Positions 3,503-26,981 of a stretch of DNA of 26,981 nt are shown here, piece after piece. The notes under the pieces were generated by a model that was not told where the DNA came from, made no database searches, and saw only the letters and a program-made list of their open reading frames with translations. The DNA lies in IMG/VR virus record IMGVR_UViG_3300045988_122866, positions 1 to 26,981 of that record; one strand, given 5' to 3'. The first letter of the stretch is position 1, and each line of letters begins with the position of its first letter. The position numbers and the translations under genes were made by a program. The DNA comes from a virus.

Positions 3503-3541
3503 ATTATACCATAGGGAATAGGACTTGTCAAGCCCTATTCC
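3503..3541 (-). promoter_or_regulatory. Consensus promoter (TTGACA-17-TGGTATAAT) with the -35 inside a 9-bp inverted repeat GGGAATAGG…CCTATTCCC
   Basis: Read directly. The inverted repeat also lies just downstream of the stop of the exonuclease gene. Confidence 0.65.
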
Positions 3542-3551
3542 CCTATTTTTT

Positions 3552-4328
3552 TTAGCTCATGTTTATCATGGGATTTTCCTTAATGTTTCGCATGAGCGCG
3601 CGCTGAAACTCGGTAGGCTTGGGGCGTTCCACCGTGGGAGTTTTGAAAAGGGACTTTTCCATTTCCTTGTGCTGTCGGACACAATAGCGCAGAATCTCAA
3701 CTTCAATGAGAACATCTTCTAATCCTGTGTGGGATTCATCAAAGCTGTCTTCACCGCTGATAAAGCGATAGAGAATTTCTGCGGTGAAACGGAGCTGTCC
3801 GTTCTTGGTCTTGTAGCCATTCTTTTCGCAATAGTCGCGGTAAGTGGGCATTTTGCCCATAACCTGTCGCGCCATTTTCAACGTGTCCCAAACTTCAAGG
3901 CCGTAGGGGAAGAAATAGCGATACTTGCTTTTCGTGTCCCATCTTTGCGCGTTGTTGCAGGCGTTAAGGTCGAACCGCATATTGTGAGCGCAGACAAAAG
4001 AGCAGTTATAACGCTCGACACATTCGCAGAACGCAAGACGAATTTCGTAAAGGTCAGCCATAATGCGAGTGCCGTTTTGAATGTCCTCAATGTAGCGGGG
4101 AATCTTATCGGCATAGTATGTGGACTGCATAAGGTCGCGCTCGTAGCAGAAAATGTCGCGATTCACAAAAGAATGAGTTTCATAAACATTTCCCTTGGAA
4201 TCAATGACCGCCCACCCAAAGTCGTAGGGAAGCACATTTGACATATCCAGCTTATCGCCGTCCTGAATGGTGTTTGCAGTTTCCGTGTCCAGCATAATAC
4301 CGTAGTTCCTGCGCCTATCAATACCCAT
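3552..4328 (-). CDS. DnaQ-like DEDDh 3'-5' exonuclease
   Basis: Motifs MLDTETA (Exo I), CAHNMRFDLN (Exo II) and HTGLEDV (Exo III with His). SD GGAGACG. TAA stop. Confidence 0.75.
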   Translation of the reverse strand: MGIDRRRNYGIMLDTETANTIQDGDKLDMSNVLPYDFGWAVIDSKGNVYETHSFVNRDIFCYERDLMQSTYYADKIPRYIEDIQNGTRIMADLYEIRLAFCECVERYNCSFVCAHNMRFDLNACNNAQRWDTKSKYRYFFPYGLEVWDTLKMARQVMGKMPTYRDYCEKNGYKTKNGQLRFTAEILYRFISGEDSFDESHTGLEDVLIEVEILRYCVRQHKEMEKSLFKTPTVERPKPTEFQRALMRNIKENPMINMS

Positions 4329-5761: not shown

Positions 5762-6076
5762 TCAAAATTCTTCTAAAAAGTGAATCGGCTTATGGTTTGG
5801 TCTGAAAAATGCCATTCCCTCGGTATAAAGAGAATTAAACAAATCTGCGGACACTTCAAACCATTCCGTGCCGCTAATGCGATTGCCTAACTCACTTAAA
5901 GTCAGATGACAAGAATTTTCCATGTCTCGACTTCCGGCGCAAGTGCTACGCATTATCGCTTTCGGATTATGGCTATAATAGCTTTTACGACGCTTTGCAA
6001 GGTTTTTAGTGCCGTCAGAATAGCCAACTTTAACCAAATGGCTATTGGTTAAATTATCCATCATCAAATACAGCAT
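5762..6076 (-). CDS. T5orf172/GIY-YIG-like domain protein
   Basis: LVKVGYSDGTKNLAKRRKSY … EWFEVS resembles the T5orf172 (MUG113) signature. SD GAGGT. TGA stop. Confidence 0.5.
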   Translation of the reverse strand: MLYLMMDNLTNSHLVKVGYSDGTKNLAKRRKSYYSHNPKAIMRSTCAGSRDMENSCHLTLSELGNRISGTEWFEVSADLFNSLYTEGMAFFRPNHKPIHFLEEF

Positions 6077-6232
6077 TTTTACCTCACAGCAGATGGGTAT
6101 TAACCCATTCTGCGGTCACAAGTCCGATTTCCTTAGAGACAACCGTTTCATAGCGGTAATTACCGCCATCAGTTCGTCCGGTCACTTTGGCGAGAACGCC
6201 AAGAGTAAGCCAAAAGTAAGGCATCATTTTTA

Positions 6233-6439
6233 TCACCCCTTATTGCCGACCGAGAAGATGGACTGTAAAAGCACGAGAATAATCCAAATTGCGAGTGCCA
6301 ACTTCCACGAAAATACGATGACGAAAGTGCCGATTGCGGTGATACCAAGAGCGGGAAGAAGCCAACAGAGAAGCCAAACCAAACCAGAGGTAAGCAGGAA
6401 CGAAACAGCGAGAGACAGCAGAATCAAAAGAACAATCAT
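6233..6439 (-). CDS. Small membrane protein (two predicted TM helices)
   Basis: Hydrophobic throughout. Promoter with hairpin-embedded -35 at about 6455-6502. TGA stop. Confidence 0.5.
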   Translation of the reverse strand: MIVLLILLSLAVSFLLTSGLVWLLCWLLPALGITAIGTFVIVFSWKLALAIWIILVLLQSIFSVGNKG

Positions 6440-6494: not shown

Positions 6495-6995
6495 TCAAGC
6501 CCTTTTCTCCAAAAGTTCCGAAAGTTTTTCGATAATGTTTACTGCGGTCGGGTCAATGGTAGCGCCCAAGTGCCAACCATTCCGAACCTTTTCATTATCG
6601 TCAACCAAGATAGACACGTCATAGCGGTCGCGCACGCTGTCGGCCTTAGTCGCGCCATACTGGACGCCGTGGAAGTGGTCATAGTGGAAGCCCTGTTCTT
6701 CAAGCCACGCGCGTTTTGCTTCACGCACGAGGTTTTTGTATTCCTCGCTCGAATCCTTAGAGAGCCAAGTGATGATATTGATTTCCCAACCCTCGGCGCG
6801 GAGAAGTTCGCAAACCTCATTCAATTCAGCCATGTCGCACATGGGAACGGCAGTTCGATAGGGCTTAGGATTTTCCGAACGGAGAAGCGCAAGCCAATCC
6901 TTGACGCCGTAGAGGTCAGCGATAGTGCCGTCCATATCAAAGTTGATGGAGCGTCGAGTGGCTACAACGTGGGACTTAATGTAAGTGATTTTCAT
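6495..6995 (-). CDS. HAD-superfamily 5'(3')-deoxyribonucleotidase-like protein
   Basis: HAD motif I FDMDGTIADL and motif III-like ILVDDN. The fold family resembles the T5 Dmp / NT5C type. TGA stop overlaps the next promoter's -35. Confidence 0.6.
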   Translation of the reverse strand: MKITYIKSHVVATRRSINFDMDGTIADLYGVKDWLALLRSENPKPYRTAVPMCDMAELNEVCELLRAEGWEINIITWLSKDSSEEYKNLVREAKRAWLEEQGFHYDHFHGVQYGATKADSVRDRYDVSILVDDNEKVRNGWHLGATIDPTAVNIIEKLSELLEKRA

Positions 6996-7564: not shown

Positions 7565-7708
7565 TTACCCCCTAAAAGATAAGAAATTAAGCAAAATCAG
7601 CACAGGAATAGCGTAGACGATATTGAAATAGTCCCACCCGAGACTTTCACAGGAATAAGCAAAAATAAAGCCAAAAACGAGGCCGAAAATGCCGATTAAA
7701 ATAATCAT
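7565..7708 (-). CDS. Small single-pass membrane protein (start M15). ATGA overlap with the upstream stop.
   Basis: SD GAGGAT. The start codon overlaps the TGA of 7705..7968, suggesting translational coupling. Confidence 0.45.
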   Translation of the reverse strand: MIILIGIFGLVFGFIFAYSCESLGWDYFNIVYAIPVLILLNFLSFRG

Positions 7709-8087: not shown

Positions 8088-8240
8088 TTGACAAATTGCT
8101 GGGATGGTGGTATAATGGAATTTCCGGCCGTGGCAGGCGCAAACGGCCGGCCATTTTATCACACTATTGGATTTTTGTCAATAGGCAAAATAAATAAAAT
8201 TTTGAGACGAGATTTGGTTATCTCGTCTCAAAATATTTTT
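8088..8240. promoter_or_regulatory. Leader module copy C. Plus promoter: TTGACA about 8088-8093, N17, TGGTATAAT about 8111-8116. Hairpin 8124-8150 (ccggccg/cggccgg). Minus promoter: -10 about 8153-8158, -35 about 8176-8181. Terminator 8203-8230 (11-bp stem tgagacgagat/atctcgtctca).
   Basis: Same architecture as copies A and B. Track ORF 8064..8261 is an artefact. Confidence 0.7.
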
Positions 8241-8691
8241 AACGTTCAGATACAATGCTGAGGTAGCGGACAATCATATCCATTTCGCAACCCATGTCCT
8301 GCTGGTCGCAAACCGCATAACCCACAAGGTCGCCGTCCGCACAAATCGGGTAAACACCATAAGTGTTATTGAAAACAAATGGCTTTCTTTTAAAATCCCA
8401 CTGGGTCGAAACATAAGGCGGAAAGTTTTCCATACCCCGCAGTTTCACGGTAGTATCATAGATTGCGATGGGACGCAGACCGGAATTCGATGCCATTGTA
8501 ATAGCGGTTCGCAGAGCTTCTTCGGTCAAAGAGCCAAGCACTGAATACCTCTTGAAGCAAACGCAGTCGTTATCTTCAATGAAGATTTCGAGCGGGTCTC
8601 CCTCGCGAATCTTCAAAGTCCGGCGAATCTCTTTCGGAATGACCACACGTCCAAGGTCATCAATTCTGCGGATAATACCAGTAGCTTTCAT
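8239..8691 (-). CDS. AbrB/SpoVT-family (swapped-hairpin) DNA-binding regulator with a C-terminal domain of unknown function
   Basis: N-terminus GIIRRIDDLGRVVIPKEIRRTLKIREGDPLEIF matches the AbrB-N/MazE-like fold. TAA stop immediately followed by module C's terminator. Confidence 0.65.
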   Translation of the reverse strand: MKATGIIRRIDDLGRVVIPKEIRRTLKIREGDPLEIFIEDNDCVCFKRYSVLGSLTEEALRTAITMASNSGLRPIAIYDTTVKLRGMENFPPYVSTQWDFKRKPFVFNNTYGVYPICADGDLVGYAVCDQQDMGCEMDMIVRYLSIVSER

Positions 8692-9528: not shown

Positions 9529-9693
9529 AGTTTTTAATTTACTCTTTTAATTTTTCTAATAGGTCATCAACACATTCGTAGCTGATACTTCTGCGGTCGC
9601 ACTCGTTGGACAAAGGACAACACGCGCAGTCATTAAAGGTTTCCGTCCAAGCGCGCAACCAGTCAATCAAGCGCAAAGTATTAACTTCCTCAT
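9529..9693 (-). CDS. Micro-ORF, about 54 aa, Cys-rich (…NDCACCPLSNECDRRSISYEC…). Its ATG overlaps the TGA of 9690..10037. Coordinates +/-3.
   Basis: ATGA overlap with the upstream stop. Below the track's size cutoff. Confidence 0.3.
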
Positions 9694-10037
9694 ACATTGT
9701 TATCATTCTCCTTTACTCGGACAAAAAAGACCTTGTTATAGATTTTTGTTGCTTTAAGGTCAATCCAGAAATACACGTTTCCGCATACTCGATAGATTTT
9801 ACAAGTCTCTCCGCTAACCTTTTTGACTTCCTCAAATTTCTCTGGTGTTGTAGGGTGGAAAACCGTCAGTTTGAGAAATATGCAATAGAAAGCCAAAGGA
9901 ACGAAGCCGATAATCATAGCAATCCATGCGAGAACATCAGTTAAAGTGTTTTCCCATTCACACCACTCATCGGTGATTGTAGCGAACGCAATACCCACGC
10001 AAAACGCGAGAATCAACCAATACCATGCAACCATCAT
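9690..10037 (-). CDS. Membrane protein (115 aa)
   Basis: Two or three hydrophobic helices. First gene downstream of module D's minus promoter. TGA stop. Confidence 0.5.
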   Translation of the reverse strand: MMVAWYWLILAFCVGIAFATITDEWCEWENTLTDVLAWIAMIIGFVPLAFYCIFLKLTVFHPTTPEKFEEVKKVSGETCKIYRVCGNVYFWIDLKATKIYNKVFFVRVKENDNNV

Positions 10038-10141
10038 TTTAGTCCCCCTTTATTTGTTGTATACATCTTACCACATTATAGGATTTTTGTCTATTGGCAT
10101 TTTACACAAAAATTCGTGCGAAAATTTGTTGAACTTACCTC

Positions 10142-10265
10142 TTGACAAAAAACTCGGCGCGCCACAGTCGTTCGCGCGCCGACGATTTTATCACATTCAA
10201 GGAACTTTGTCAATAGTCAAAACAAATAAAAAATTCAGGCGAGATTTGGTTATCTCGCCTGAAAA
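10142..10265 (-). promoter_or_regulatory. Leader module copy D. Hairpin 10156-10180 (ggcgcgcc…gcgcgcc). Minus promoter: -10 about 10185-10190, -35 about 10208-10213. Terminator 10237-10260 (aggcgagat/atctcgcct). The plus-strand -10 is deleted.
   Basis: A TTGACA lies on the plus strand at about 10142, but no -10 follows at 17 bp. The rest of the core is conserved. Confidence 0.6.
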
Positions 10266-10493
10266 TTACACGTCCCACATGGCTTCCGCAATCCAGAAGT
10301 ATTCATAGCGGAGCTTTGACTGAATCGCAAACAAAGCGTCCGCAATTTCTCCACCGTCTCTGCGGTCTTCCACATTTGAAAATTCCTTGCTCTCTTTCGC
10401 AATTCTTTGAGCTAATTTTTCAATGGCATCTGCCTGTTCTCTCAAAGCCTGCGGGATAGGTTTTTCATTCATTATTTGTTTCCCCCTTTGCAA
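10266..10493 (-). CDS. Hypothetical protein (75 aa)
   Basis: Track ORF. SD AAAGGGGGAAAC. The TAA stop abuts module D's terminator. Confidence 0.5.
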   Translation of the reverse strand: MQRGKQIMNEKPIPQALREQADAIEKLAQRIAKESKEFSNVEDRRDGGEIADALFAIQSKLRYEYFWIAEAMWDV

Positions 10494-10618
10494 AGTTAGA
10501 GGTTAGCTCTAACGTATGTCCGCATTCATCGCAATACCAATAGTAATAAACTGTTCCATACCGGCCATGAGAAGCATTTACAAATTTCATTTCATTTCCG
10601 CAGATGGAGCAATAGCCG

Positions 10619-10822
10619 TCATTCCATGCCTTTTTTATCGGCATTGTGGTCAGCGACTACTGCGCCCGTCATACCGTAGCCAAGAGCGCACGAAATGAGA
10701 AGACCAACCAACAGTCTGACTATTGGGTGAAATTTATCCATGTTGCACCAACAGACAAGACAGACAAATAGCGCGAGGACTGCACTAAAAATTCCGCCAA
10801 CGATTAAAAATTCCATTCCCAT
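10619..10822 (-). CDS. Small membrane protein (67 aa, two TM helices)
   Basis: Track ORF. Start is coupled (TAAAAATGG) to the upstream micro-ORF. Confidence 0.5.
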   Translation of the reverse strand: MGMEFLIVGGIFSAVLALFVCLVCWCNMDKFHPIVRLLVGLLISCALGYGMTGAVVADHNADKKGME

Positions 10823-10824
10823 TT

Positions 10825-10896
10825 TTATTTCCCCTTTTCACATTTAACGCATTGAGCGTGTGTTCCGCACTTTCCATCACAATAAGGACATTTCAT
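10825..10896 (-). CDS. Micro-ORF, 23 aa, five Cys (MKCPYCDGKCGTHAQCVKCEKGK), zinc-ribbon-like. Coordinates +/-1.
   Basis: SD AAAGGGGAA. Its ATG lies 1 nt after the TAA of the preceding 38-aa ORF. Confidence 0.4.
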   Translation of the reverse strand: MKCPYCDGKCGTHAQCVKCEKGK

Positions 10897-10897
10897 T

Positions 10898-11014
10898 TTA
10901 GTTCCCCTTTCTCAGACTCTCTTCAATTTCTTCCCATTCGCTTCTGAACAATTCAATGTTCGTATTGCCGATACACTCTAAAATAGCTTTAATCTGTTCC
11001 TCAGTAAATTTCAT
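10898..11014 (-). CDS. Micro-ORF, 38 aa (MKFTEEQIKAILECIGNTNIELFRSEWEEIEESLRKGN). Coordinates +/-1.
   Basis: SD AAAGGGGAA. Promoter with hairpin-embedded -35 at about 11046-11078. Confidence 0.4.
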   Translation of the reverse strand: MKFTEEQIKAILECIGNTNIELFRSEWEEIEESLRKGN

Positions 11015-11092
11015 TTTTTTTATTCCCCTTTCCTTTGATACATTAAGTATAGCAGAAAAAGGGCTTTTTGTCAAGCCCTTTTCTTATTTTTT

Positions 11093-11455
11093 TCAATTTT
11101 CTTTTCTAATGGAGTAGTAGCTCCGACTTCCCTTTTTGGTGTAGGTCAACTTTCTGTCAATCCAGCAAAGATGACCACAATACCACGAAATAGTGGCGCA
11201 AGAATATTCCTTGCCAGTCTCACGGTAAAGAATAAACTGAATTTCCGTAGGGCGCAGGGGCTTTTCCGCCTTTGAGAGAACATCGAGCATCATGTTTTTC
11301 ATCATGGTGTTGCGGATTTCCTGTTTCAGTTTCCGCGCTTCCTGGGCTTCTTCATACTGTGAGCAAGCTCTCTCCGCGTGGATTTCATCAATTCCGGTGA
11401 AAGTGCCATTGTCAAGGAATTTCTTCAAAAGGCTATAAGTTTCAAAGTTCATCAT
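11093..11455 (-). CDS. Hypothetical protein with a C-terminal winged-helix-like segment
   Basis: …LRPTEIQFILYRETGKEYSCATISWYCGHLCWIDRKLTYTKKGSRSYYSI looks like a wHTH. TGA stop. Confidence 0.45.
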   Translation of the reverse strand: MMNFETYSLLKKFLDNGTFTGIDEIHAERACSQYEEAQEARKLKQEIRNTMMKNMMLDVLSKAEKPLRPTEIQFILYRETGKEYSCATISWYCGHLCWIDRKLTYTKKGSRSYYSIRKEN

Positions 11456-11555
11456 GTCAGTATTCCCTTTCCTTTATTGTGCTTTTATTATAGCATCTGC
11501 TTTTGAATTTGTCAAGAAGTTTTTTGGAAAAAGAGGGAAAAATTTTCCCTCTTTT

Positions 11556-13048: not shown

Positions 13049-13171
13049 TCAACTTCTCTTTCTACGGCGAATCGCTCTCTTTACGCGGTGCTCCACGTAT
13101 TCGATGAGCGCACCCGCGCCGATAACACCAACATAGATAGCGAGAAGAACAAGACCATCGTGAGTAGACAT
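13049..13171 (-). CDS. Micro-ORF, about 40 aa, with one TM helix and a basic tail (MSTHDGLVLLAIYVGVIGAGALIEYVEHRVKRAIRRRKRS). Coordinates +/-2.
   Basis: SD AAGAGGTAAATCAA. Promoter with hairpin-embedded -35 at about 13205-13239. The overlapping plus-strand track ORF 13010..13432 is an artefact. Confidence 0.35.
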   Translation of the reverse strand: MSTHDGLVLLAIYVGVIGAGALIEYVEHRVKRAIRRRKRS

Positions 13172-16299: not shown

Positions 16300-16330
16300 C
16301 TTGACAAAAAAAATTTTTTCGAGTATAATA
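16300..16330 (+). promoter_or_regulatory. Consensus sigma70 promoter TTGACA-N17-TATAAT driving the plus-strand late-type operon
   Basis: cTTGACAaaaaaaattttttcgagTATAATat. GGAGGT SD then ATG at 16354. Coordinates +/-1. Confidence 0.75.
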
Positions 16331-16353
16331 TAAATATAGACTGGAGGTAAAAA

Positions 16354-17409
16354 ATGATAAAACTTGATTATTCTTTACAAACTCCAGAAGAAAGAAATCA
16401 ATTAGTCGAACAAATTTTGGCTGATAATCCAGATCCGCCTGAAAAGTATTTAGAAATTTTAGCAGACTATTTGGTTCTTTGTATGGAGAAACAAGAAAAA
16501 AAGGAGAAAAAATTATTAACTGATAATCGTATGGCTACAGTTAATAAGCGTGAGATTTCTTTTGAAGGTCTTGTTTCCCAACTCGAAAATGGCGAAGATG
16601 GAATTTATAATTTAATTACAGACAATAGAAATACAATATTTCAACCACATATTACAATTACAAAAAAAGATTTAGAAGAGATACCAAGTTTAAATTAGTT
16701 AAGAGAAGCCATTAATGTTTGGGAGGCTAAATTAAAAGTAACAGAAGGCAAAGATGCTTTTGTTATTAAAAAGGCTCTTATTGAAATGCGTAAAGATTAG
16801 TATGTTATGAAAAATGCTTATCGTCGTCCAATAGTGCCTACAAAATTAACTAGATCAAAGTCTTATATTCCATTAGATGATAAAACATTTATTTTTGATG
16901 ATGATGGTTTTCCCATTCCTGATGGAATTAGTTTATTAAGACCTGAAATATGTTCTGCGGTTTTATGTAATTATTCCCGATTAAAGCAAGATAGTTGGGG
17001 CGAATACGATAAAGACTTATGGTATTTAATGGAGGATTTTGATAAGCTTTGTGATAAAGCTTTAGCTAATTATCCTCTTTATGATAGAATCGTTGAATAT
17101 AAAATTGATGGTTTACAAAATATTGACATTCAAGAGAAAATACAAATGGAATTTGGCATTAAGCACAGTCTTGAATATATTTCAAGTTTATGGCGTAATA
17201 AAATTCCAAAATTAATTGCTTCGACTGCGGAAGATGAATATTTAGATAATTATTATTTAAATGTTGAAAAAGGTAAATATAAAAAATGTAGTCGTTGTGG
17301 TAAAATAAAATTAGCTCATAATAAATATTTTAGTAAAAATAAAACAAGTAAAGATGGCTTTTATAGTATTTGTAAAAGTTGTCGAAATTCTAAGGCCAAA
17401 AAATCTTAA
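16354..17409 (+). CDS. Hypothetical protein, 351 aa, with a C-terminal CxxC-N17-CxxC zinc ribbon. Contains 2 in-frame TAG codons (16696, 16795).
   Basis: Track ORFs 16354..16698 and 16807..17409 are in the same frame. The intervening segment has no TAA or TGA. TAA stop. Confidence 0.6.
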
Positions 17410-17458
17410 TATTGTCCTTTTGTTTATAATAAATAGTTGAAAGGAGAATATTTTATTT

Positions 17459-18646
17459 ATGGCTGAAACATATTATTGCGAAAAATGTAATCGCACAATG
17501 AATGGCACGGAATTCTATTCATCTAATAATTTAGAAAAATATCCTAATGATGGTAAATTTCCTGTGTGCAAAAAATGTATGACAATGCACGTCGATAATT
17601 GGAATCCAGATACTTATTTATGGATTTTGCAAGAAGCAGATGTTCCTTATGTCCCAGATGAATGGAATAAATTAATGGAAAAATATGGACGCGATCCGCA
17701 GTCTATGACCGGTATGACAATTCTTGGACGTTATTTGTCAAAAATGAAACTCAAATAGTTTAAAGATTATCGTTGGAAAGATACAGAATTTTTATAGTAG
17801 ATGGCGAATAATAAATTAGAACAAACTATGAAGCGTCAAGGATATGATGCTCAATAGATTGCAACCGCTATTGAAAAAAGTTCTATTGCTATTCCAGAAG
17901 GAGAACTAAAAGAGCCGGTTTATGCTCCACCACCTAATGCCCCTACGGAAGATTATTTCGCACAATAGAGGGGTGAAGTGGAACAAGAATTAGACTTAAC
18001 TGATGAAGACCGCACTTATTTAAGACTTAAATGGGGCAAAACTTATAAACCTGAAGAATGGGTTAAGCTTGAATAGCTGTATGAAGAAATGATGGCTTCT
18101 TATGATATTCAAGGTGCCGGACATAAAGATACGCTAAAATTAATATGTAAGACATCTTTAAAGGCAAATCAATTGATCGATATTGGTGATATTGAAGGTT
18201 TCCAAAAGATGAGCAAAGTATACGATAGCTTAATGAAGTCTGGTAAATTTACTGCTGCTCAAAACAAAGCAGAATCAGGTGAATTTGTTGATTCAATTGG
18301 TGAATTAATTGAATTGTGTGAAAAAGAAGGATATATTGAAAGATATTATGTTGAATAGCCACATGATAAAGTGGATTTAACTATTCAAGATATGCAACGT
18401 TATACTCGCACTCTTATCGAAGATGAAACTAATATTAGCACAATGGTAGAAAAGGCTTTACGCGAAAATGCTAAAGAAGATGAAGAGAAAGCAAAGAACG
18501 CGGAAAGCGATATCGTTGATGATGCTGATTTAAGTATTGAAGAACTTGAAAAAACTATTAAAGATAGTGATTATGCGGATTTTGAGGAATTTAAAGAATA
18601 GGAATCTGCGCAAGATAATGAGTTCTTATAGGGTTTGGATAAATAA
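17459..18646 (+). CDS. Hypothetical protein, 395 aa, with an N-terminal CxxC-N23-CxxC zinc ribbon and an acidic C-terminus. Contains 9 in-frame TAG codons including a tandem TAG-TAG. Candidate small terminase by position only.
   Basis: Track ORFs 17459.., 18089.. and 18371.. share one frame. A codon-by-codon walk finds no TAA or TGA until TAA 18644-18646, which overlaps the TerL ATG (TAATG). SD AAAGGAGAA. Confidence 0.55.
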
Positions 18647-20385
18647 TGGCATTACAAGATTTACTGTAGTTAAGTGATAGCCGTAGAAAAATAGGTCTAT
18701 CACCGGAGCGAGTAGAAGCGGTAATGCCTACTATCCGCAAATACGTTGCCTTTTGGAGAGAATATCCTGATTTATTTGTAGATTTTATGGTGCGAGGAAG
18801 ACGCACTGAAATAAAAGATGGAGAATTTAATTTTTATTTTTATTAGAGAGTATTTCTCCGTTCTGTTATGCGTTATTAGTATGTTTACGCGGTTTTCCCT
18901 CGTGCTTATTCTAAATCATTCTTGTCTGTTATGGCATTAATGATTAGATGTATTTTATATCCTGGTGCGCACTTGTTCGTTACTTCTGGAGGTAAAGAGC
19001 AAGGTGCTAGTATTCTTCATGATAAAGTTCAAGAAATATGTGAACTTATTCCAAGCTTTAATCGAGAAATTGATTGGAGTCGAGGAAAAACTCTTGAAGG
19101 AAAAGATAAAGTTAGATATGTGTTTAAAAATGGTTCAGTTTTGGATAACCTCGCAGCTCGTGAAAGCACTCGTGGTCAGCGTCGTCATGGTGGATTAATG
19201 GAAGAATGTGTCGGTATTGATGATGCTATTCTTCGTGAAGTTATTATTCCTGTTATGGCAATTTCTCGTAGAGCTAAAGATGGCACTACCAATGAACAAG
19301 AGCCATTAAACAAATCACAGATCTATATTACTACTGCTGGTTATAAGGGCACATTCCCTTATGATAGACTTATTGGTTTCTTAGTTCGTATGGTGACTTA
19401 GCCTGATCGTTGTATGGTATTGGGCGGAACATGGCGAACTCCTGTTGCAGTAGGATTACAAAGTAAAACATTTATTACTGACCAAAAGAATGAAGGAACT
19501 TATAATGAAGCTTCATTCGAACGTGAATATGAATCTAAGTGGTCAGGAACTGTTGAGGATGCTTTCTTTAATGGAGAGCATTTTGATAGGAATAGAAAAC
19601 TATTATAGCCTGAATATGAAGCTTCTGGACGTGCGGGCGCACAAGCTTATTATGTGCTTTCTGTAGATGTAGGTCGTAAAGGGTGTGATTCAGTAGTTTG
19701 TGTATTTAAAGTAACACCACAAGCTCAAGGCCCAGCTATTAAATCATTAGTAAATATGTATACTATGTCAGATGACCATTTTGAAGATTAGGCTATTAAA
19801 TTAAAGAAATTATTTTATAAATATAAAGCTAAAACTTTAGTTATAGATGGTAATGGTTTAGGTATTGGACTTTTAGATTATATGGTAAAATCTCAAAATG
19901 ATGAAGATGGTGAATTTTTACCTGATTTTGGTGTTGAGAATGATGATGATGGATATTATAAAAAATATCGCACACCAAATACTCAATTTGATGCTATGTA
20001 TGTTATTAAAGCAAATGCTCCAATAAATACTGAATGTCATGCTAATGCTCAGACTCAATTGCAAGCGGGTAAAGTAAAATTCTTAATAGATGAGAGAACA
20101 GCTAAAGAAAAATTATTAGCTACTCAAAAAGGTTCAAAAATGACTTCTGAACAAAGGGCAGATTATTTAAAACCATTTACTTTAACCTCCATATTAAAAG
20201 AAGAAATGATGAATTTACGCGAAGAAAATGAAGGTATTAATATTATCCTAAAACAGGCAAATCGTGGAATTCGTAAAGATAAATTTTCGGCTTTTGAATA
20301 TGGATTATATTATTTAAAACTTGAAGAAGATAAAAAGAAAAAACGTAAAAAGTTTAATGCGGCTGATTGGTGCTTTTTAAATTAA
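18646..20385 (+). CDS. terL: Terminase large subunit, 579 aa, with 6 in-frame TAG codons
   Basis: Track ORFs 18922.., 19414.. and 19882.. are in one frame, and the frame extends upstream to ATG 18646 across 3 more TAGs. Walker-A-like PRAYSKS after FYFY(Q)RVF. C-terminal nuclease-like segments YVLSVDVGRKGCDSVV and LVIDGNGLGIGLLDYM. Confidence 0.8.
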
Positions 20386-20397
20386 GGAGGGTGGAAA

Positions 20398-20754
20398 ATG
20401 CGTGCTTCAAGAGGAGAAATTAAAATTGAAGAAATCTTAGAAGAAGCAGGACTACCTTTTAAAATGGAATATATCTTTCCAGATTTAAAAAGCCCAAGCG
20501 GGCGTCCGCTTCGTTTTGATTTTGTTATATTTGATGATGATGGAAAAATTGATTTCATTATTGAGTATTAGGGAAAATAGCATTATGAAGCCAGTTCTAA
20601 ATTTGGCGGAAAACGCGGTTTATACCAGTAGCAATATAATGATAATCAAAAAAGACGTTTTTGCGCTTTACATGATTTTAGATTAATAGAGATTCCATAT
20701 ACCGACGAAAACCTTATTTCTTATGATTATATAATGAAATTAGCAGGTTATTAA
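20398..20754 (+). CDS. Small PD-(D/E)xK (Vsr/DUF559-like) nuclease-fold protein, about 118 aa, with 3 in-frame TAGs
   Basis: SD AAGGAGGG. FDFVIFDDDGKIDFIIEY(TAG)GK(TAG)HY fits the D…E-x-x-G-x-Q-H signature if TAG is Gln. TAA stop. Confidence 0.5.
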
Positions 20755-20767
20755 AGGAGGTGGAACT

Positions 20768-22417
20768 TTGGATACGCAAGATCGTAATGAATAGATTCAT
20801 GCTAAAGGTTTTGATATTTATAATGGTCGTTATGAATATAATTATAATGATACCATGGACTATGCCAATAGAAAAATAAAAGTTGGCACAAAAACTTTAG
20901 ATGACGCTATTTTAAAACTTGGTGATTATAGTAAGATTAGATATCCAGGTCAAAATCGTATTATCACGAAACCTGATGTGCTTCGCGCGCTCGCAGAAAG
21001 AGATCTAAATGCTTTGCGATACATCTCTAATTTTTATTATGATATAAGTGGTGTATATCAACGAGTTTGTAATTATGTTGCTTTTTTATATCGTTATGAT
21101 TGGTATATTGCAGCCGAAACTTATGATGACAATGTAAAAGAAGAAAAAGTTTTAAAAGATTTTTATAAAATGTTGAATTATTTTGATAATAGCTATATTA
21201 AAAAGGTTTGCGGAGATATTGCTTTACAAGTTGTTAAAAATGGATGCTATTATGGTTATATAGTTCCTTCAGAGAAAAATCTAATTTTACAAGAATTACC
21301 AGTTAGATATTGTAGAACACGTTATAGTGTAAATAATACCCCAGTTGTTGAATTTGATATGCGATTTTTTGATACTTTTAGAGATATGAATTATCGTTTA
21401 AAAGTATTAAAATTATTCCCAGAAGAATTTGCTAAAGGTTATGTTCTATATAAACAAGGAAAACTTGCTTTGGAAGAGGCAGTTGGATGCTAGCATACTG
21501 GTAGTTGGTATGTTCTTGAACCAGAAAATTGTGTTAAATTTAATATTAATAATAGTGATGTTCCTATTTTTGTAAATTCGATTCCTACTATTATGGATTT
21601 AGATGCAGCGCAAGATCTTGACCGCAAGAAACAAATGTAGAAGTTGCTTAAAATTTTAGTCCAAAAGCTCCCAATGGATAAAAACGGTGATTTGATATTT
21701 GATGTTGATGAAGCCAGAGATATCCATAATAATGCCGTTTAGATGTTATAGAGGGCTATTGGAGTAGATGTTTTAACTACATTTACCGATGTAGATTCTA
21801 TTGATATGTCTGATAAGAATACTACTACAACGACAGATGATTTAGCTAAAGTTGAACGTAGCGTTTATAATTCGTTAGGTATTTCATAGAATTTATTTAA
21901 TACTGATGGTAATATGGCTTTAGAAAAATCAGTGTTAAATGATGAATCTACAATAAGAAGTTTAATTTTATAGTTTAATATATTCTTTAATAGAATTATT
22001 GAAAAAAAGAGTAGTAATAAGAAATATAATTTTAGATTTTATTTATTAGAAACTACTCAGAATAATTATCAAACACTTTCTAAAATGTATAAAGAACAAG
22101 CGCAAATGGGACAATCAAAGCTATTGTCTTAGATTGCTCTTGGACATTCGTAGAGTTTTATTCTTAATGCAGCTCATTTTGAAAATGAGATTTTACATTT
22201 AAGTGAAATTATGATTCCTCCTCTTATGAGTTCTACTATGGGTAGTGAAGATATTTTGGGTTTAAAAGGTTCATCATCTAATAATAAAACTCAAAATAAT
22301 TCAGGAAGTTCAGGCTCTGGAACTGCTAAAGCTTCTAATGGCGAGGCAGGACGTCCGGAAAAACCTGATGATTAGAAAAGTGAAAAAACTATTCAAAATA
22401 AAGAAGCAATGAAATAA
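20768..22417 (+). CDS. Putative portal protein, about 549 aa, with at least 9 in-frame TAG codons
   Basis: SD AAAGGAGGT then a TTG start (alternative ATG at 20855). The frame is continuous with track ORF 20855..21493 through to TAA 22415-22417, with no TAA or TGA in 1.6 kb. Size and position after TerL fit a portal. Confidence 0.55.
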
Positions 22418-22426
22418 GGAGGATTT

Positions 22427-24004
22427 ATGAAACATACAAGTATTAAATTAAATACACCTTGTGAGTTTATAAATATAACTCCTGTAAATCCTTTAATTTC
22501 TAAATGCCAAATTAAGGTTTGTTATGTAGATGATAAACCTAATCGTAACAAAAGTGTAATTACTAAAGATGTAGCGACTGAGATGGCTAATAGCCTTCCT
22601 GGTAGTCCTATTGTTGGCTTTTTTAATGAGAATGCTGAAGATTTTGAAGAACATAATAGGATAATTGAATTATCTAACGGCGAATTTAGAATGAGAGATG
22701 ATACTCGTCCTTATGGTTTTGTTGATCTTGGAGCTAAAGTTTGGTTTTAGAAATTTTTGGATGATGGTGTTGCCGAACGTGAGTATTTAATGACTGAAGG
22801 TTATTTGTGGACTGGTTAGTATCCTGAATGTAAACGTGTAATTGATAAAGGGAATAATCATTCTATGGAGCTTGATGAAAAAACATTAAATGCTACGTGG
22901 GCAAAAGATAGCAATGGAAAACCTTAGTTTTTTATTATAAATAAGGCAATTATTTCTAAACTTTGTATTTTGGGAGAAGAAAATGAACCTTGTTTCGAAG
23001 GTTCCCAAATCAATGTGAATTTTTCATTCGATGATGGTTTTAAGAACACTTTGTTCTCCATGATGAATGAACTTAAAGAATTTATGAAAGAAGGAGGAGC
23101 CAAAGTGTTTACACAATACGCTGTTAATATTGGCGACAATTTGTGGAATTCTCTTTATTCTTATATTGAGAATAAGTATCCTGTCGAACCAAAGAATTAT
23201 TGTTCTGTTTATCGCATTGAAGGTGTTTGCGAAGATGGTGAACAAAAGTTTGCTGTTTTGAAGAATAAGCAGGATGAAAAATACTATCGTATGGATTTTT
23301 CTCTTGAAGCAGAGAATTTCGTTCCTTCTGATACTTTGATTGAAGTAACTGATTATGCTCCTGCGGCTGAGCCTCAGTTTGCTCTTAATGCTGTAGAAGA
23401 ATTTGAAAATGAGTATGCTTCAAAAAAGAAAGCAGAAGAGGACAAAAATAATAAATCAAATAATCCTGACGGTGAAAATAAATCAGAGGGCAATGATAAT
23501 AAAAAGAACCCTGATAATGGAGAGCCCTCTAATAAGTCTGATAAAGGCGACAACGGTGAGAATGATGATGATAAAAAGAAAAAGAAAAATTATTCTCTTG
23601 AGGACGTTGTTGAATATACTGAACTTAAAGCTCAGTATGATGAATTACAGACTAAATTCGCAGCTCTTGAAACTGAAAATAATAGCTTGAAAGAGCAAAT
23701 TGCTCCACTTGCTGAATTTAAAAATGCTGCTGAGAAGAAAGATAAAGAAGATATGATTGCTAAATTCTATATGCTTTCTGATGAAGATAAAGCTGATGTT
23801 GTTGAAAATATTGATAAATATTCTCTTGATGATATTGAAGCTAAATTATCTGTTATTTGTGTTCGCAACAAGGTGAGTTTCGACCTTGACGAAAATAATA
23901 AGCCCAATGGTGCTACTACTTTTAATTTGAACAATAATGGTTCAGAAGACGATGATATGCCCGCTTGGGTGAAGGCGGCTTTTGCTACCGCCAACAAAAA
24001 TTAA
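22427..24004 (+). CDS. Scaffold-like protein, 525 aa: N-terminal globular domain (3 TAGs at 22748, 22817, 22925), acidic low-complexity linker, C-terminal coiled coil. Possibly a protease-scaffold fusion.
   Basis: SD AAGGAGG. Track ORFs 22427..22750 and 22970..24004 are in the same frame, verified codon by codon. Contains a KE/D-rich segment and heptad-like repeats. Confidence 0.5.
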
Positions 24005-24021
24005 TAAGGAGGACATACTAA

Positions 24022-24939
24022 ATGTTTAAAGACTTTTTGAATAAGAATCTTCCTATTAAGTCTCAGGCAAAGTATGTTGAGTTTGGTTACGGTCAGGTCG
24101 AGCCTAATCACCTTTCCGCGCAAAGAAATGCTCAAATCTATGCTCAACTTCCTGCCAATAAAGACATTGAGATTCTTGAAAACGGTCAGTTTGTAAAGTA
24201 TGACTATGCTGCTAATGGTAATGGTATCGGCGAAGTCAACTTTACTGGCGAAGGTGAATGGATGCTCGTTTATAATGAGATTAAGCTTTATCGTGATCAT
24301 TATGATGGCAGTAAGCAGTGGGACTGCGAATTTGCTATGATTAAAGATGACTATCAGGCTCGTGTTTATAGTCCTTATGATTGGGAGCATACCGAGGTTG
24401 AATATGGTGGTCGTTTCTGGAATGGTGTTGATGAAAAGGGTCAAACCTATAAGTTAATCAATCAGACCGTTTCCGCAGATCAAGGTTTAAAGACTGTTAC
24501 TATTGCTGGTCGTGTTTATGATGTTGATGAAACCGGCAAGTTTACTTATGATGGTAATGAATATACTCTTGATAGTAATCATCAGGTTGCTAATGTTCCT
24601 GTAAAGTATTACTATGATAAGCTTCTTACTGATGTTCCTGATATGTATGAAATGAATTGGACCAATGATCCATATCATAAGTTAGGTATTTATCATGAGA
24701 AGTTCATGGAATCTGGCACTTCTATGGTTCCTCGTGTATTTAAGACCATGATTGGTGATCTTTATACTACTAATATGATTAATGAAGAGACTCTTGCTGT
24801 TGGAGATAAGCTTTCTCCTTCTGCTGCTACAAAGGGTATTCTTAGCAAAACTGGCGACGATTCAATGACCTGGCAGGTTGTTAAGGTTTATACTATGCCT
24901 GATGGTCAAAAGGGCGTCAAGGTAATGCGTATTAAGTAA
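24022..24939 (+). CDS. Major structural protein (capsid, decoration or second coat protein), 305 aa, TAG-free
   Basis: Strong SD AAGGAGG. Codon usage shifts to GCT/GGT/CGT/CTT, typical of highly expressed genes. Lies between the scaffold-like gene and the capsid candidate. Confidence 0.45.
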   Translation: MFKDFLNKNLPIKSQAKYVEFGYGQVEPNHLSAQRNAQIYAQLPANKDIEILENGQFVKYDYAANGNGIGEVNFTGEGEWMLVYNEIKLYRDHYDGSKQWDCEFAMIKDDYQARVYSPYDWEHTEVEYGGRFWNGVDEKGQTYKLINQTVSADQGLKTVTIAGRVYDVDETGKFTYDGNEYTLDSNHQVANVPVKYYYDKLLTDVPDMYEMNWTNDPYHKLGIYHEKFMESGTSMVPRVFKTMIGDLYTTNMINEETLAVGDKLSPSAATKGILSKTGDDSMTWQVVKVYTMPDGQKGVKVMRIK

Positions 24940-24956
24940 GAAAGGAGAAAAGGATA

Positions 24957-26063
24957 ATGTTAGATAAAAATAATTTAATTGCTCTTATGAAGCAAGTTGC
25001 TAAGGCTGATCCTTCTGCTCCTGTTGCTTATAGTTATGAGGGAAAAAATCTTAGTTATGAAGCCTTAAATGAAACTCTTCGTAATGAAATGAATGAGTTG
25101 GCTGGTACTTACGCTCTTTATCGTGAAAATAAGAATCTTATTTTCTCTATGATTGAGCAGACTCTTGATGAGGTTCTTCCTAAGAAAGTTATTCAGCAAT
25201 ATGATCAGTTTGCTGAGGTTAAAACTTTCGCTCAGGGTGATAAGCCTATTTTCCGTCGTCCTCTTAATAATCGTGCTCGTGCTAAGCAGTTTGTAACTCG
25301 CGTTGGTCTTGCTGGTATTTATGAAGTCTTCAAGCTCGGACCTAAAGAGAATGAAGCCTTTGAGGTACGTACTAGCGCTATCGGCGGAGCTGCTCAGATT
25401 GGCTTCGAAGAGTTCCTTGATGGTCGTGTTGATTTCGGTGAAGTAACCAAGATCATCATGGATGGTATGGATGAACTTATTTATAAAGAAGTTGCTGCTG
25501 CTCTTAGATCTTCTATCAATCAGCTTCCTCCTGCTAACCGCGTTGCGGCTGCCGGATTTGATGAAGCTGCTATGGATCGTTTGATCACTATTGCTTCTGC
25601 TTATGGTACTCCTACTATTTATTGTACTTATGAGTTCGCTGTTAAGATGATTCCTCATGAGGCTTGGAGATATACTGAAGCTATGAAGAACGAGCTTTGG
25701 AATAATGGTCGTCTTGCTACTTACAAGGGCACTAAGGTTATTATTCTTGAGCAGGGCTTTGAAGATGAAACAAATACTCGTAAGGTTATTGATCCTGGTT
25801 ATGCTTGGGTTATTCCTACGGGCGCTGATGGTAAGCCTGTAAAGATTGCTTTCGAAGGTGGCACTATTGTTGACGAGTTCAACAATTATGATCGTTCTCG
25901 TGAGATTCAGGTTTACAAGAAGGTTGGCGTAGTTTGTATGCTTGCTAATAACATCTGTGCTTATGTTGATACTTCACTTCTCGGTCAGATGTATACTTGG
26001 AATTATGATGGAGTCACCGGTAAGGTTGTCACTTATGATGGCCGTCTTGATGGCAAGATCTAA
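24957..26063 (+). CDS. Putative major capsid protein, 368 aa, TAG-free
   Basis: SD AAGGAGAAAAGG. High-expression codon bias. Followed by the strongest terminator in the late region. Size fits an HK97-fold coat protein. Confidence 0.5.
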   Translation: MLDKNNLIALMKQVAKADPSAPVAYSYEGKNLSYEALNETLRNEMNELAGTYALYRENKNLIFSMIEQTLDEVLPKKVIQQYDQFAEVKTFAQGDKPIFRRPLNNRARAKQFVTRVGLAGIYEVFKLGPKENEAFEVRTSAIGGAAQIGFEEFLDGRVDFGEVTKIIMDGMDELIYKEVAAALRSSINQLPPANRVAAAGFDEAAMDRLITIASAYGTPTIYCTYEFAVKMIPHEAWRYTEAMKNELWNNGRLATYKGTKVIILEQGFEDETNTRKVIDPGYAWVIPTGADGKPVKIAFEGGTIVDEFNNYDRSREIQVYKKVGVVCMLANNICAYVDTSLLGQMYTWNYDGVTGKVVTYDGRLDGKI

Positions 26064-26082
26064 TTTAATATAAATTATTCCA

Positions 26083-26125
26083 TGGGGAGAAGGGATTAAA
26101 CTCCCTCTCCCCATATTTTTGTTTT
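26083..26125 (+). terminator. Intrinsic terminator (tggggagaaggga…tccctctcccca plus a T-run) after the capsid gene
   Basis: A 12-13-bp stem followed by tatttttgtttt. Confidence 0.7.
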
Positions 26126-26149
26126 ATGAGTAAAAGGAGAAATTGAATA

Positions 26150-26743
26150 ATGATTAATAATGAAGATATTTATAATGTAAAAAATAGAAGCACTAGTGTA
26201 GTTGTTTATACTATTCCTGATACTAATTTGCGTCGTGAATTTGCGCCTGGTGAAACTAAGCGTATTCCATTTGGTGAGCTAGAGAAATTAACTTATCAGG
26301 CAGGCGGTCGCGAATTAATTGCTAATTTTTTACAAATTTTAGAGCCAGAAGTAACTCATACTCTTAATGTTCATACTGAACCTGAATATAATATGTCAGA
26401 GCAACAAGTTGCTGATTTAATTCTTAATGGCTCATTAGATGCTTTCTTAGATGCTCTTGATTTTGCTCCTATTGGAATTATTGACTTAATCAAGAATTTA
26501 TCTGTTAGCCTTCCTATTACTGATATTAATAAGCGTAGAGCTTTGAAGGAAAAAACTGGGTTTGATGTTGATAAAGCTATTGCTAATGATATCGCTAGTA
26601 AAGAAGAAGATACTATTGTAGAGAAAGAACCCGCTGCTAAGCGCCGTGTAGTAAGAGAAGAGCCTACTACTCAAGGTCGTCGCACAAGCGGTTCTGGATA
26701 TAAAGTAATTAATAAAACCGAGGAAACTTCCTCCAAGAAATAA
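26150..26743 (+). CDS. Hypothetical structural-module protein, 197 aa, TAG-free
   Basis: SD AAAGGAGAA. TAA stop. Confidence 0.5.
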   Translation: MINNEDIYNVKNRSTSVVVYTIPDTNLRREFAPGETKRIPFGELEKLTYQAGGRELIANFLQILEPEVTHTLNVHTEPEYNMSEQQVADLILNGSLDAFLDALDFAPIGIIDLIKNLSVSLPITDINKRRALKEKTGFDVDKAIANDIASKEEDTIVEKEPAAKRRVVREEPTTQGRRTSGSGYKVINKTEETSSKK

Positions 26744-26762
26744 TTTATAGGAGGGCGATTAA

Positions 26763-26981
26763 GTGGGAACATTATTCTCAGCTGTTTATAATCGCTTTCT
26801 AAACAAGGTTACTGATGACATGTATCTGGAGTTGACTCCTGAAGATACTCTAAGAGATTTATAGAATCTTATAATAGATGCTATTCCTGGATTTGAATTT
26901 CCACGAAAAAATCTTTTAGATTATAATTTAGATGTTGCTACTATTAATGAATCTGATGCTATGCCAGATGATTTTATTGTA
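26763..26981 (+). CDS. Hypothetical protein, 5' part only (runs off the window), GTG start, with one in-frame TAG
   Basis: SD TAGGAGGGCG. The frame stays open to the window end apart from one TAG. Confidence 0.4.

Follow-up and report, generated by a model that had tools for sequence, protein, structure and literature searches.

A probable short early operon with two micro-genes and a frameshift-split two-helix zinc-ribbon gene in a gut phage related to Herelleviridae

To characterize a group of overlooked small genes, we analysed a 26,981-nt stretch of viral DNA (IMG/VR record IMGVR_UViG_3300045988_122866, positions 1 to 26,981; hereafter the window), in which an earlier note had singled out three open reading frames (ORFs) of 38, 23 and 67 amino acids (aa) at 10619-11014 that share one Shine-Dalgarno sequence (SD) and are spaced for translational coupling. 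These ORFs, here called A, B and C, are present as described and lie on the minus strand; they belong to a larger unit, however, in which one promoter and one terminator enclose five ORFs, A, B, C, D and E, and the trio does not behave as a unit among relatives, where A, B and the gene to which C belongs occur independently and in either order. The best explanation of the whole, and probably the right one, is a short early operon in which A and B are micro-genes, C is one half of a split gene (CD) whose other half is D, and the joints between cistrons are the breakpoints of operon rearrangement. The same note held that the ORF list had missed all three; this applies to A and B, which fall below its 60-aa cut-off, and not to the 67-aa C, which is shown in the 60-aa list. 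The features of the operon, including segments predicted as transmembrane (TM) helices, are as follows.

11082-11057, minus: composite hairpin AAAAGGGCTTGACAAAAAGCCCTTTT, whose loop holds the -35 box of the operon promoter and which resembles a terminator for the 120-aa gene upstream
11074-11046, minus: sigma-A type promoter (TTGACA, 17 nt, extended -10 TGcTATACT), 11/12 consensus positions, conserved in related loci
11031-11023, minus: SD of ORF A, AAAGGGGAA, with a spacer of 8 nt to the ATG
11014-10898, minus: ORF A, 38 aa, acidic, MKFTEEQIKAILECIGNTNIELFRSEWEEIEESLRKGN; its terminal codons (..RKGN) are the SD of ORF B
10910-10902, minus: SD of ORF B, AAAGGGGAA, within the 3' end of ORF A
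10896-10825, minus: ORF B, 23 aa, MKCPYCDGKCGTHAQCVKCEKGK; its terminal codons (..EKGK) are the SD of ORF C
10837-10829, minus: SD of ORF C, AAAGGGGAA, within the 3' end of ORF B
10822-10619, minus: ORF C, 67 aa, two hydrophobic TM helices, ending ...DKKGME*; N-terminal fragment of the frameshifted CD
10636-10629, minus: poly-A tract A6GG, the frameshift site, in the linker between the TM helices and the zinc ribbon
10644-10465, minus: ORF D, 59 aa, zinc ribbon CSIC...CDEC, without an SD, overlapping C by 26 nt
10822-10465, minus: reconstructed CD gene, two TM helices and a zinc ribbon, 118 aa after removal of one poly-A base
10598-10584, minus: simple repeat (GAAAT)3, inside ORF D
10472-10266, minus: ORF E, 68 aa, predicted helical hairpin, with SD AAAGGGGGAA at 10489-10480
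10263-10234, minus: intrinsic terminator with a 12-bp stem and a T run after it; in relatives it changes only in the loop

A, B and C each begin 5-8 nt downstream of an exact copy of AAAGGGGAA, a sequence of which the window has eight copies, all of them on the minus strand, compared with an expectation of 0.47; none of 100 shuffles reached eight. SD and spacer together form a 15-nt direct repeat in three copies, and at the stop/start junctions, which read TAA-A-ATG and TAA-AA-ATG, 1-2 nt separate a stop from the next start. Judged by their sequence, these cistron junctions are built for translational coupling.

Degenerate DNA patterns, together with a concatenated A+B query, served to find homologs of the two micro-ORFs, as both are below the length needed for a search of related loci and A also below that for a protein homology search. 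Related loci were assembled through the C protein (L001-L007), through fused CD homologs (L008-L011 and L039), through exact copies of A (L040-L044) and through degenerate DNA patterns for B and A (L012-L038). ORF A was found in 13 further loci (12 used for the analysis of selection) and in about 17 called proteins at 63-100% identity; it is 38 aa long in nearly all copies (39 aa in L021 and in protein P0031), and the replacements among its homologs are conservative. Its ratio of nonsynonymous to synonymous polymorphism (pN/pS), calculated over 10 unique nucleotide sequences, is 0.23 in frame, compared with 0.40-1.58 in the other five frames, which contain stops. ORF B occurs in more than 30 loci with constant length, including nine of the ten distinct operons found through CD and all five found through A. 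Selection on B was scored solely on loci not ascertained through B, yielding a pN/pS of 0.16 in frame vs 0.29-2.5 in the other frames (12 unique sequences); in the first set of 7 sequences the variable columns numbered 3, 2 and 10 at codon positions 1, 2 and 3, respectively. Residues C3, C6, C10, H13, C16 and C19 of B are invariant, and their codons vary synonymously. The corresponding in-frame values are 0.26 for ORF C and 0.23 for ORF E, and the non-coding frames of the operon genes give 0.29-2.5, nearly all with stops.

Because their length is fixed and purifying selection is confined to the proposed frame, A and B are, on the evidence of these comparisons, bona fide protein-coding micro-genes. 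Loss of conservation in related phages had been named in advance as the observation that would speak against them; this was checked, and both are conserved. They add two well-supported micro-protein families, of 38 and 23 aa, that standard gene callers have mostly missed. The net charge of A is about -4, and B is basic. Metagenome assemblies also contain singleton in-frame fusions of the two, A-B (P0016, 62 aa) and B-A (P0017, 63 aa). We considered these as a sign of physical interaction between A and B and dropped the idea, as both are singletons and, at least for A-B, a 1-nt slip in the SD joint would account for the fusion; the fusions are weak evidence at best for a functional link.

ORF C has a different status. 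Each of the seven IMG/VR relatives has C and D joined in frame into a single ORF of 114-118 aa that starts at the SD-bearing start codon; where the window has GATAAAAAAGGCATGG, these relatives read GATAAAAAAGCATGG (or GATAAAAAGGCATGG). Across loci, 13 of the 16 distinct poly-A tracts are in frame, reading A6G or A5GG or, in a few cases, AGAAAA or AAGAAA. A protein search returned nine full-length CD homologs of 113-118 aa, standing for hundreds of member sequences, and a profile built from these homologs returned 302 cluster representatives at E<=1e-3, mostly 100-118 aa long and matching end to end. The family shares the linker WN[DN]G.C and the ribbon YYYW.C..CG, and C and D together match it over its whole length with both motifs; the window copy differs in being split by the frameshift. 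Thus, the relatives carry the TM helices, the WN[DN]G.C linker and a CxxC...CxxC ribbon in a single chain, whereas in the window these elements are divided between two ORFs.

The AlphaFold 2 (AF2) model of CD contains helices at residues 3-27 and 33-65 and a three-stranded zinc ribbon, the ribbon having a predicted local distance difference test (pLDDT) score of 80-89. A fold search with this model gave as its best BFVD match A0A8S5NWK2, an unannotated viral entry called 'Zinc-ribbon domain protein'; CD has no PDB fold match and no Pfam entry, and an exact look-up of the 67-aa C product returned no match. From these comparisons, C is not a stand-alone gene but the N-terminal two-TM half of a CD gene of 113-118 aa. 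Of the three micro-proteins first described, A and B are genuine genes, and the 67-aa two-TM call is corrected to a frameshifted fragment of CD, which is an unnamed, widespread and uncharacterised phage family with two TM helices and a zinc ribbon. In one remote member (P0055), a lipoprotein-type signal (…LAGC) and a long polar linker replace TM helix 1; this protein may help to settle the membrane topology of the family.

To compare gene content among relatives, we counted architectures over 26 distinct complete operons, with the following result.

B-CD-E: 10/26
A-B-E: 7/26
B-E: 3/26
A-B-CD-E: 1/26 (L041)
B-A-CD-E: 1/26 (L008)
CD-E: 1/26 (L001)
Frameshifted forms: 3/26, one of them the allele of the window and L042 (A-B-C|D-E)

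E is the sole cistron found in every complete operon; A, B and CD are present, absent or reordered. The breakpoint of every architecture difference falls within the SD repeat, that is, within the last 2-3 codons of the upstream cistron (..KG[NKE]). CD-less lineages show at least five different joint sequences and therefore stem from several independent events; some of these joints are in-frame B-E fusions of 93 aa (P0033-P0037), and in others B carries the CD tail ..KGETNNE. Locus L006 is without the upstream 120-aa gene, and its join lies in the shared promoter leader AAAGGAAAGGG. We had considered the order A-B-CD-E to be unique to the window; this was rejected, since L041 and L040-L044 have the same arrangement.

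Because the cistron-end codons ..KG[NKE] double as the next SD, any two joints could recombine with coupling restored. We therefore raise, as a tentative and somewhat doubtful proposal, that the stop/SD/start joints serve as portable recombination sites, through which phages infecting Gram-positive bacteria would exchange tiny effectors in plug-and-play fashion, one cistron at a time, in their early operons. As a further possibility, the poly-A tract at the CD linker might act as a mutational on/off switch for the zinc-ribbon domain. This part of the genome is highly recombinogenic, and relatives also carry chimeric genes (P0014 and P0015; loci L012 and L020): P0014 consists of the C TM hairpin and the C-terminal part of the neighbouring 68-70-aa gene, and P0015 of TM helix 1 of C and the C-terminus of E.

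The frameshift itself is a single extra A, as the window reads A6GG and the otherwise near-identical L043 reads A5GG. The other frameshift alleles likewise arose by slippage in simple repeats: the tract is A7G in L011 and, as deduced from the protein, A4GG in P0013, and, at a second site, L039 and P0010 have lost one unit of (GAAAT)3. A Logan contig (L042, run ERR1137182) of 1,444 nt is 100% identical to window positions 10053-11496, including A6GG; because this assembly reproduces the tract, the window allele is probably real, unless L042 and the window share reads. The frameshift is also recent, since ORF D is undamaged and its protein is 100% identical to that of an intact relative.

Four other explanations bear on these data, three of them on the split of CD. 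The extra base may be a homopolymer artefact of sequencing or assembly, so that the real phage has an intact 118-aa CD and no 67-aa protein. The change is one A in an A5/A6 run relative to L043, simple repeats are also where the other frameshift alleles lie, the contigs that carry them being short and probably of low coverage, and D has no further damage; on the other hand, short reads normally call homopolymers of six reliably, and the Logan assembly is independent, although the window may derive from the same run. On balance we consider an artefact unlikely. Less probable still is that C is a functional stand-alone 67-aa two-TM micro-protein (a membrane effector, holin- or toxin-like), with an adaptive split of CD and a ribbon made separately from the ATG at 10644 or not made at all. 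The split allele recurs in L042, the independent alleles of L011, P0013 and L039/P0010 are cut after an intact TM hairpin, P0014 joins the same hairpin to an unrelated C-terminal domain, and the D frame of the window has gained an in-frame ATG five codons ahead of the shift. Set against this are the predominance of in-frame tracts (13/16 distinct), the approximately 300 family representatives that hold TM helices and zinc ribbon in one chain, the missing SD of D, and its identity to an intact relative, which makes the shift very recent; moreover, CD is wholly deleted in 10 of the 26 operons, so that decay of a dispensable gene fits better than gain. The poly-A tract could also be a programmed switch, operating by transcriptional slippage, +1 ribosomal frameshifting or phase variation to yield TM-only and TM-plus-ribbon forms. 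It does lie exactly at the domain linker and has three length variants (A4GG, A6GG and A7G), and loss of one A from the window mRNA would restore the conserved DKKAWNDG. This reading is highly improbable nonetheless, as most genomes are in frame and need no recoding, A6 is below the run lengths that give efficient RNA polymerase slippage, and some relatives interrupt the run (AGAAAA, AAGAAA) without consequence. In addition, the frame of D is +1 with respect to that of C; a classic -1 slip cannot join the two, and programmed -1 frameshifting on A AAA AAG was ruled out.

The fourth explanation concerns A and B, either or both of which could be non-functional leader ORFs that load ribosomes or couple translation into CD and E, or whose conservation is that of an RNA or regulatory element. 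Both are of minimal length, with a strong promoter ahead of them and larger cistrons behind; the SD that follows constrains the 3' end of each, and the operon persists when one or the other is absent. A leader role would nevertheless leave unexplained the dominance of third-position substitutions and a pN/pS of 0.16-0.23 in the coding frame only, the six potential metal ligands of B that stay invariant as their codons vary synonymously, and the constancy of A at 38 aa over 63-100% identity with conservative replacements. The A and B sequences are also kept in either order and with different downstream partners, which a pure leader would not need, and we judge this explanation very improbable. 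We thus retain A and B as micro-genes and CD as a single gene split in the window, where the split allele would be a mutation of recent date that abolishes function or uncouples the domains, in a gene frequently missing altogether.

Several observations weigh against this account of the operon, or limit how far it can be taken. All loci come from one phage lineage at 64-100% amino-acid identity, and the sampled divergence is therefore modest; many were retrieved by a pattern for B, and the frequencies of B are therefore biased. If L042 and the window stem from one run, the frameshift could be a read-level homopolymer error. The operon comparison does not tell insertion from deletion, and 9-15 nt of microhomology is short for homologous recombination. 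Searches of A, B, C and E against Pfam, PHROGs, NCBIfam and PADLOC gave nothing above threshold, and tblastn of A, B and CD against 50,697 phage records (GenBank, with Herelleviridae well represented) gave no match. In the AF2 model of the natural B-E fusion, B has a pLDDT of ~50, no confident fold and no docking onto E; E forms a helical hairpin. Finally, the proposed host-takeover role is drawn from likeness of architecture and not from homology.

The account draws on two known systems. The host-takeover module of phage SPO1 comprises small early genes in many short operons with strong sigma-A type promoters and ribosome-binding sites, and its products are mostly without homologs, several being membrane or small inhibitor proteins (PMC6873191). 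The window resembles this module in its dense small genes in short operons, its consensus sigma-A promoters and uniform strong SDs, and in that its nearest cultured relatives are Herelleviridae. It differs in that A, B and CD lack homology to cultured phages (tblastn), PHROGs gives no match for A, B and C, and the phage is larger (~195 kb), comes from the gut and has TAG recoded in its other module. An early-promoter and SD array in a Herelleviridae-related phage fits, by analogy, a host-takeover or anti-defence role. The earlier suggestion of anti-defence or toxin candidates finds a fitting setting here and no support for A, B or C in Pfam, PHROG, NCBIfam, PADLOC or PDB; PADLOC defence-system models likewise match none of A, B, CD and E. 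The patchy distribution of A, B and CD suggests, again by analogy, dispensable and conflict-related roles.

The second system is the promoter early stem-loop (PeSL) cassette of T4-like phages, in which a terminator hairpin joined to a strong early promoter is repeated among small ORFan genes and marks the points at which close relatives differ by indels or have swapped genes (PMC2839356, PMC4122927). The window likewise has hairpin terminators joined to strong promoters, repeated along an ORFan-rich early region, and in one case, the loss of the 120-aa gene in L006, the break lies in the shared promoter leader. In contrast, the breakpoints of A, B and CD are SD plus stop/start joints of 9-15 nt and not promoter stem-loops, so that single cistrons are exchanged and translational coupling is kept; the host of the window phage is also probably Gram-positive. 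Turnover of single cistrons at shared ribosome-binding sites extends the PeSL idea from T4-like phages to a Herelleviridae-related phage. Small ORFan early genes grouped in a host-takeover-like module are a known kind of object, and the novelty lies in the particular families; the present picture of phage early regions stands.

With respect to function, we propose that host sigma-A RNA polymerase would transcribe the operon immediately after infection, with high-level translation, and that A, B and CD would be dispensable accessory effectors each binding a host target, as do SPO1 host-takeover proteins. A and B would be cytoplasmic, and CD would act at the membrane, for example in superinfection exclusion or in interference with division or the envelope. 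B had been described as zinc-ribbon-like, and its minimal ligand pattern is indeed invariant (CxxC pairs C3-x2-C6 and C16-x2-C19, with C10 and H13); it has no Pfam or NCBIfam match and no confident AF2 fold. As there is no such fold, the case for zinc binding is the Cys pattern, by which B may fold around one Zn2+ through its two CxxC pairs. A PDB sequence search with B gave a non-significant CDGSH-like 12-mer, in which PYCDGKCGTH resembles P.CDG[SAT]H (12 residues, E 0.03), and CPYCDGK resembles the CxxCxGx of the DnaJ-type CxxCxGxG motif. The CDGSH match is too short, and B is missing the upstream CxC of CDGSH; these resemblances are a sequence-level lead and not membership. B was also considered as a precursor of a ribosomally synthesized and post-translationally modified peptide, or of SCIFF type, and this was dropped, with no maturase nearby and no NCBIfam match. 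The same PDB search with A gave only repeat-inflated matches to de novo designed TIM barrels.

ORF D gave only sub-threshold generic zinc-ribbon matches in Pfam and PHROGs. The weak resemblance to Lar-like restriction alleviation proteins (PF14354/phrog_599) lies in a CxxC...CxxC ribbon of similar size, with 16.2 bits (E 0.013) for PF14354, below the Pfam gathering threshold of 28.6 bits, and E 0.066 for phrog_599. D is normally tethered to two TM helices and Lar is not, and B matches no model. A, B and CD are cheaply synthesised candidates for host-takeover and anti-defence screens in little-known gut Clostridia phages.

The early region holds many more real micro-genes than were first listed. 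The earlier note had named three others besides the trio, two of which are conserved (one at slightly different coordinates from the 9529-9693 given there) and one of which has no counterpart in any fetched related locus. Relatives also share another three small ORFs, with 49-100% identity.

9539-9697, minus: 52 aa, in many related loci at 59-98% identity, with invariant FNDCACCPLS...C...C
13049-13171, minus: 40 aa, one TM helix and a basic tail, in many related loci as two sequence types at 66-100% identity
7427-7558, minus: 43 aa, Cys-rich and acidic, with a good SD; the ORF lacking a counterpart
6084-6227, minus: 47 aa, conserved
6233-6439, minus: 68 aa, very hydrophobic, conserved
7565-7708, minus: 47 aa, hydrophobic, conserved

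The minus strand at ~1-16.3 kb is densely filled with small ORFs, most of them preceded by the leader AAAGGAAAGGGG. Between 6 and 16.5 kb there are 57 promoter-like sites of any score, compared with 23.4 expected; approximately 20 minus-strand promoters at 6-16.3 kb have 11-12 of 12 consensus positions, and a stricter pattern that requires the extended -10 finds 24 on the whole minus strand. Terminator-like hairpins of the form AAGGGCTTGACAAAAGCCCTT enclose in their loop the -35 TTGACA of the promoter that follows; several promoters lie within the loop, or in the flank, of the hairpin ahead of them. Those overlapping -35 boxes are listed here.

11082-11057, minus: the hairpin upstream of ORF A
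13241-13217, minus: terminator/promoter hairpin
11894-11865, minus: terminator/promoter hairpin
8753-8739, minus: terminator/promoter hairpin
near 6498 and near 3531: further terminator/promoter hairpins

GC content is 40-46% in the minus-strand early module vs 28-35% in the plus-strand module (16300-26981), and the sign of GC skew flips at ~16 kb. The plus-strand module encodes a sigma factor and a portal-like protein, and its long ORFs (352, 401, 580, 559 and 528 aa) exist only with TAG read as sense, the standard code leaving fragments; the source phage therefore recodes TAG, as does phAss-1, a gut phage whose presumed hosts are Clostridia (PMC10607447). Early genes stop at TAA (22), TGA (14) and TAG (1), and because the stops of A, B, C and E are TAA or TGA, these ORFs are unaffected by the recoding. 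The window contains no tRNA genes, including suppressor tRNA genes. The records nearest to a conserved 368-aa protein are a human-faecal uncultured phage contig (58%) and phAss-1 (50%), followed by Enterococcus and Bacillus Herelleviridae (~40%), which makes Herelleviridae and phAss-1 the nearest cultured relatives. Related contigs measure 97-220 kb, the longest with this operon being ~190-198 kb. These data point to a ~195-kb TAG-recoding human-gut phage related to Herelleviridae as the source.

Megablast of window positions 8-14 kb against GenBank phages and PLSDB plasmids gave no match, and an Rfam scan of the whole window gave no family. A scan of genome contigs found only two remote relatives (35-37%), both in metagenome-assembled genomes, and therefore yielded no host assignment. 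Four minus-strand genes are among the few of the early region with recognisable domains.

8239-8691, minus: AbrB/MazE-like DNA-binding domain (E 3e-10)
5762-6076, minus: T5orf172 (E 1e-6)
6495-6995, minus: HAD/PNKP-like phosphatase
3552-4328, minus: phrog_20187 protein, weakly similar to a DNA polymerase exonuclease subunit

A repeat unit also occurs in five copies on the minus strand, with -35 boxes at 10213, 8181, 5441, 2912 and 943 and each unit extending ~130 nt downstream. It consists of a promoter (TATTGACA-N17-TGnTAAAAT), followed at once by a GC-rich hairpin of ~9 bp and then by AATTTCCATTATACC...TTTGTCAA, with no SD-led ORF directly after and no Rfam match. The hairpin stems differ in sequence between copies yet stay paired, and the unit may represent a small RNA or a bidirectional promoter element, or serve as a 5' stabiliser.

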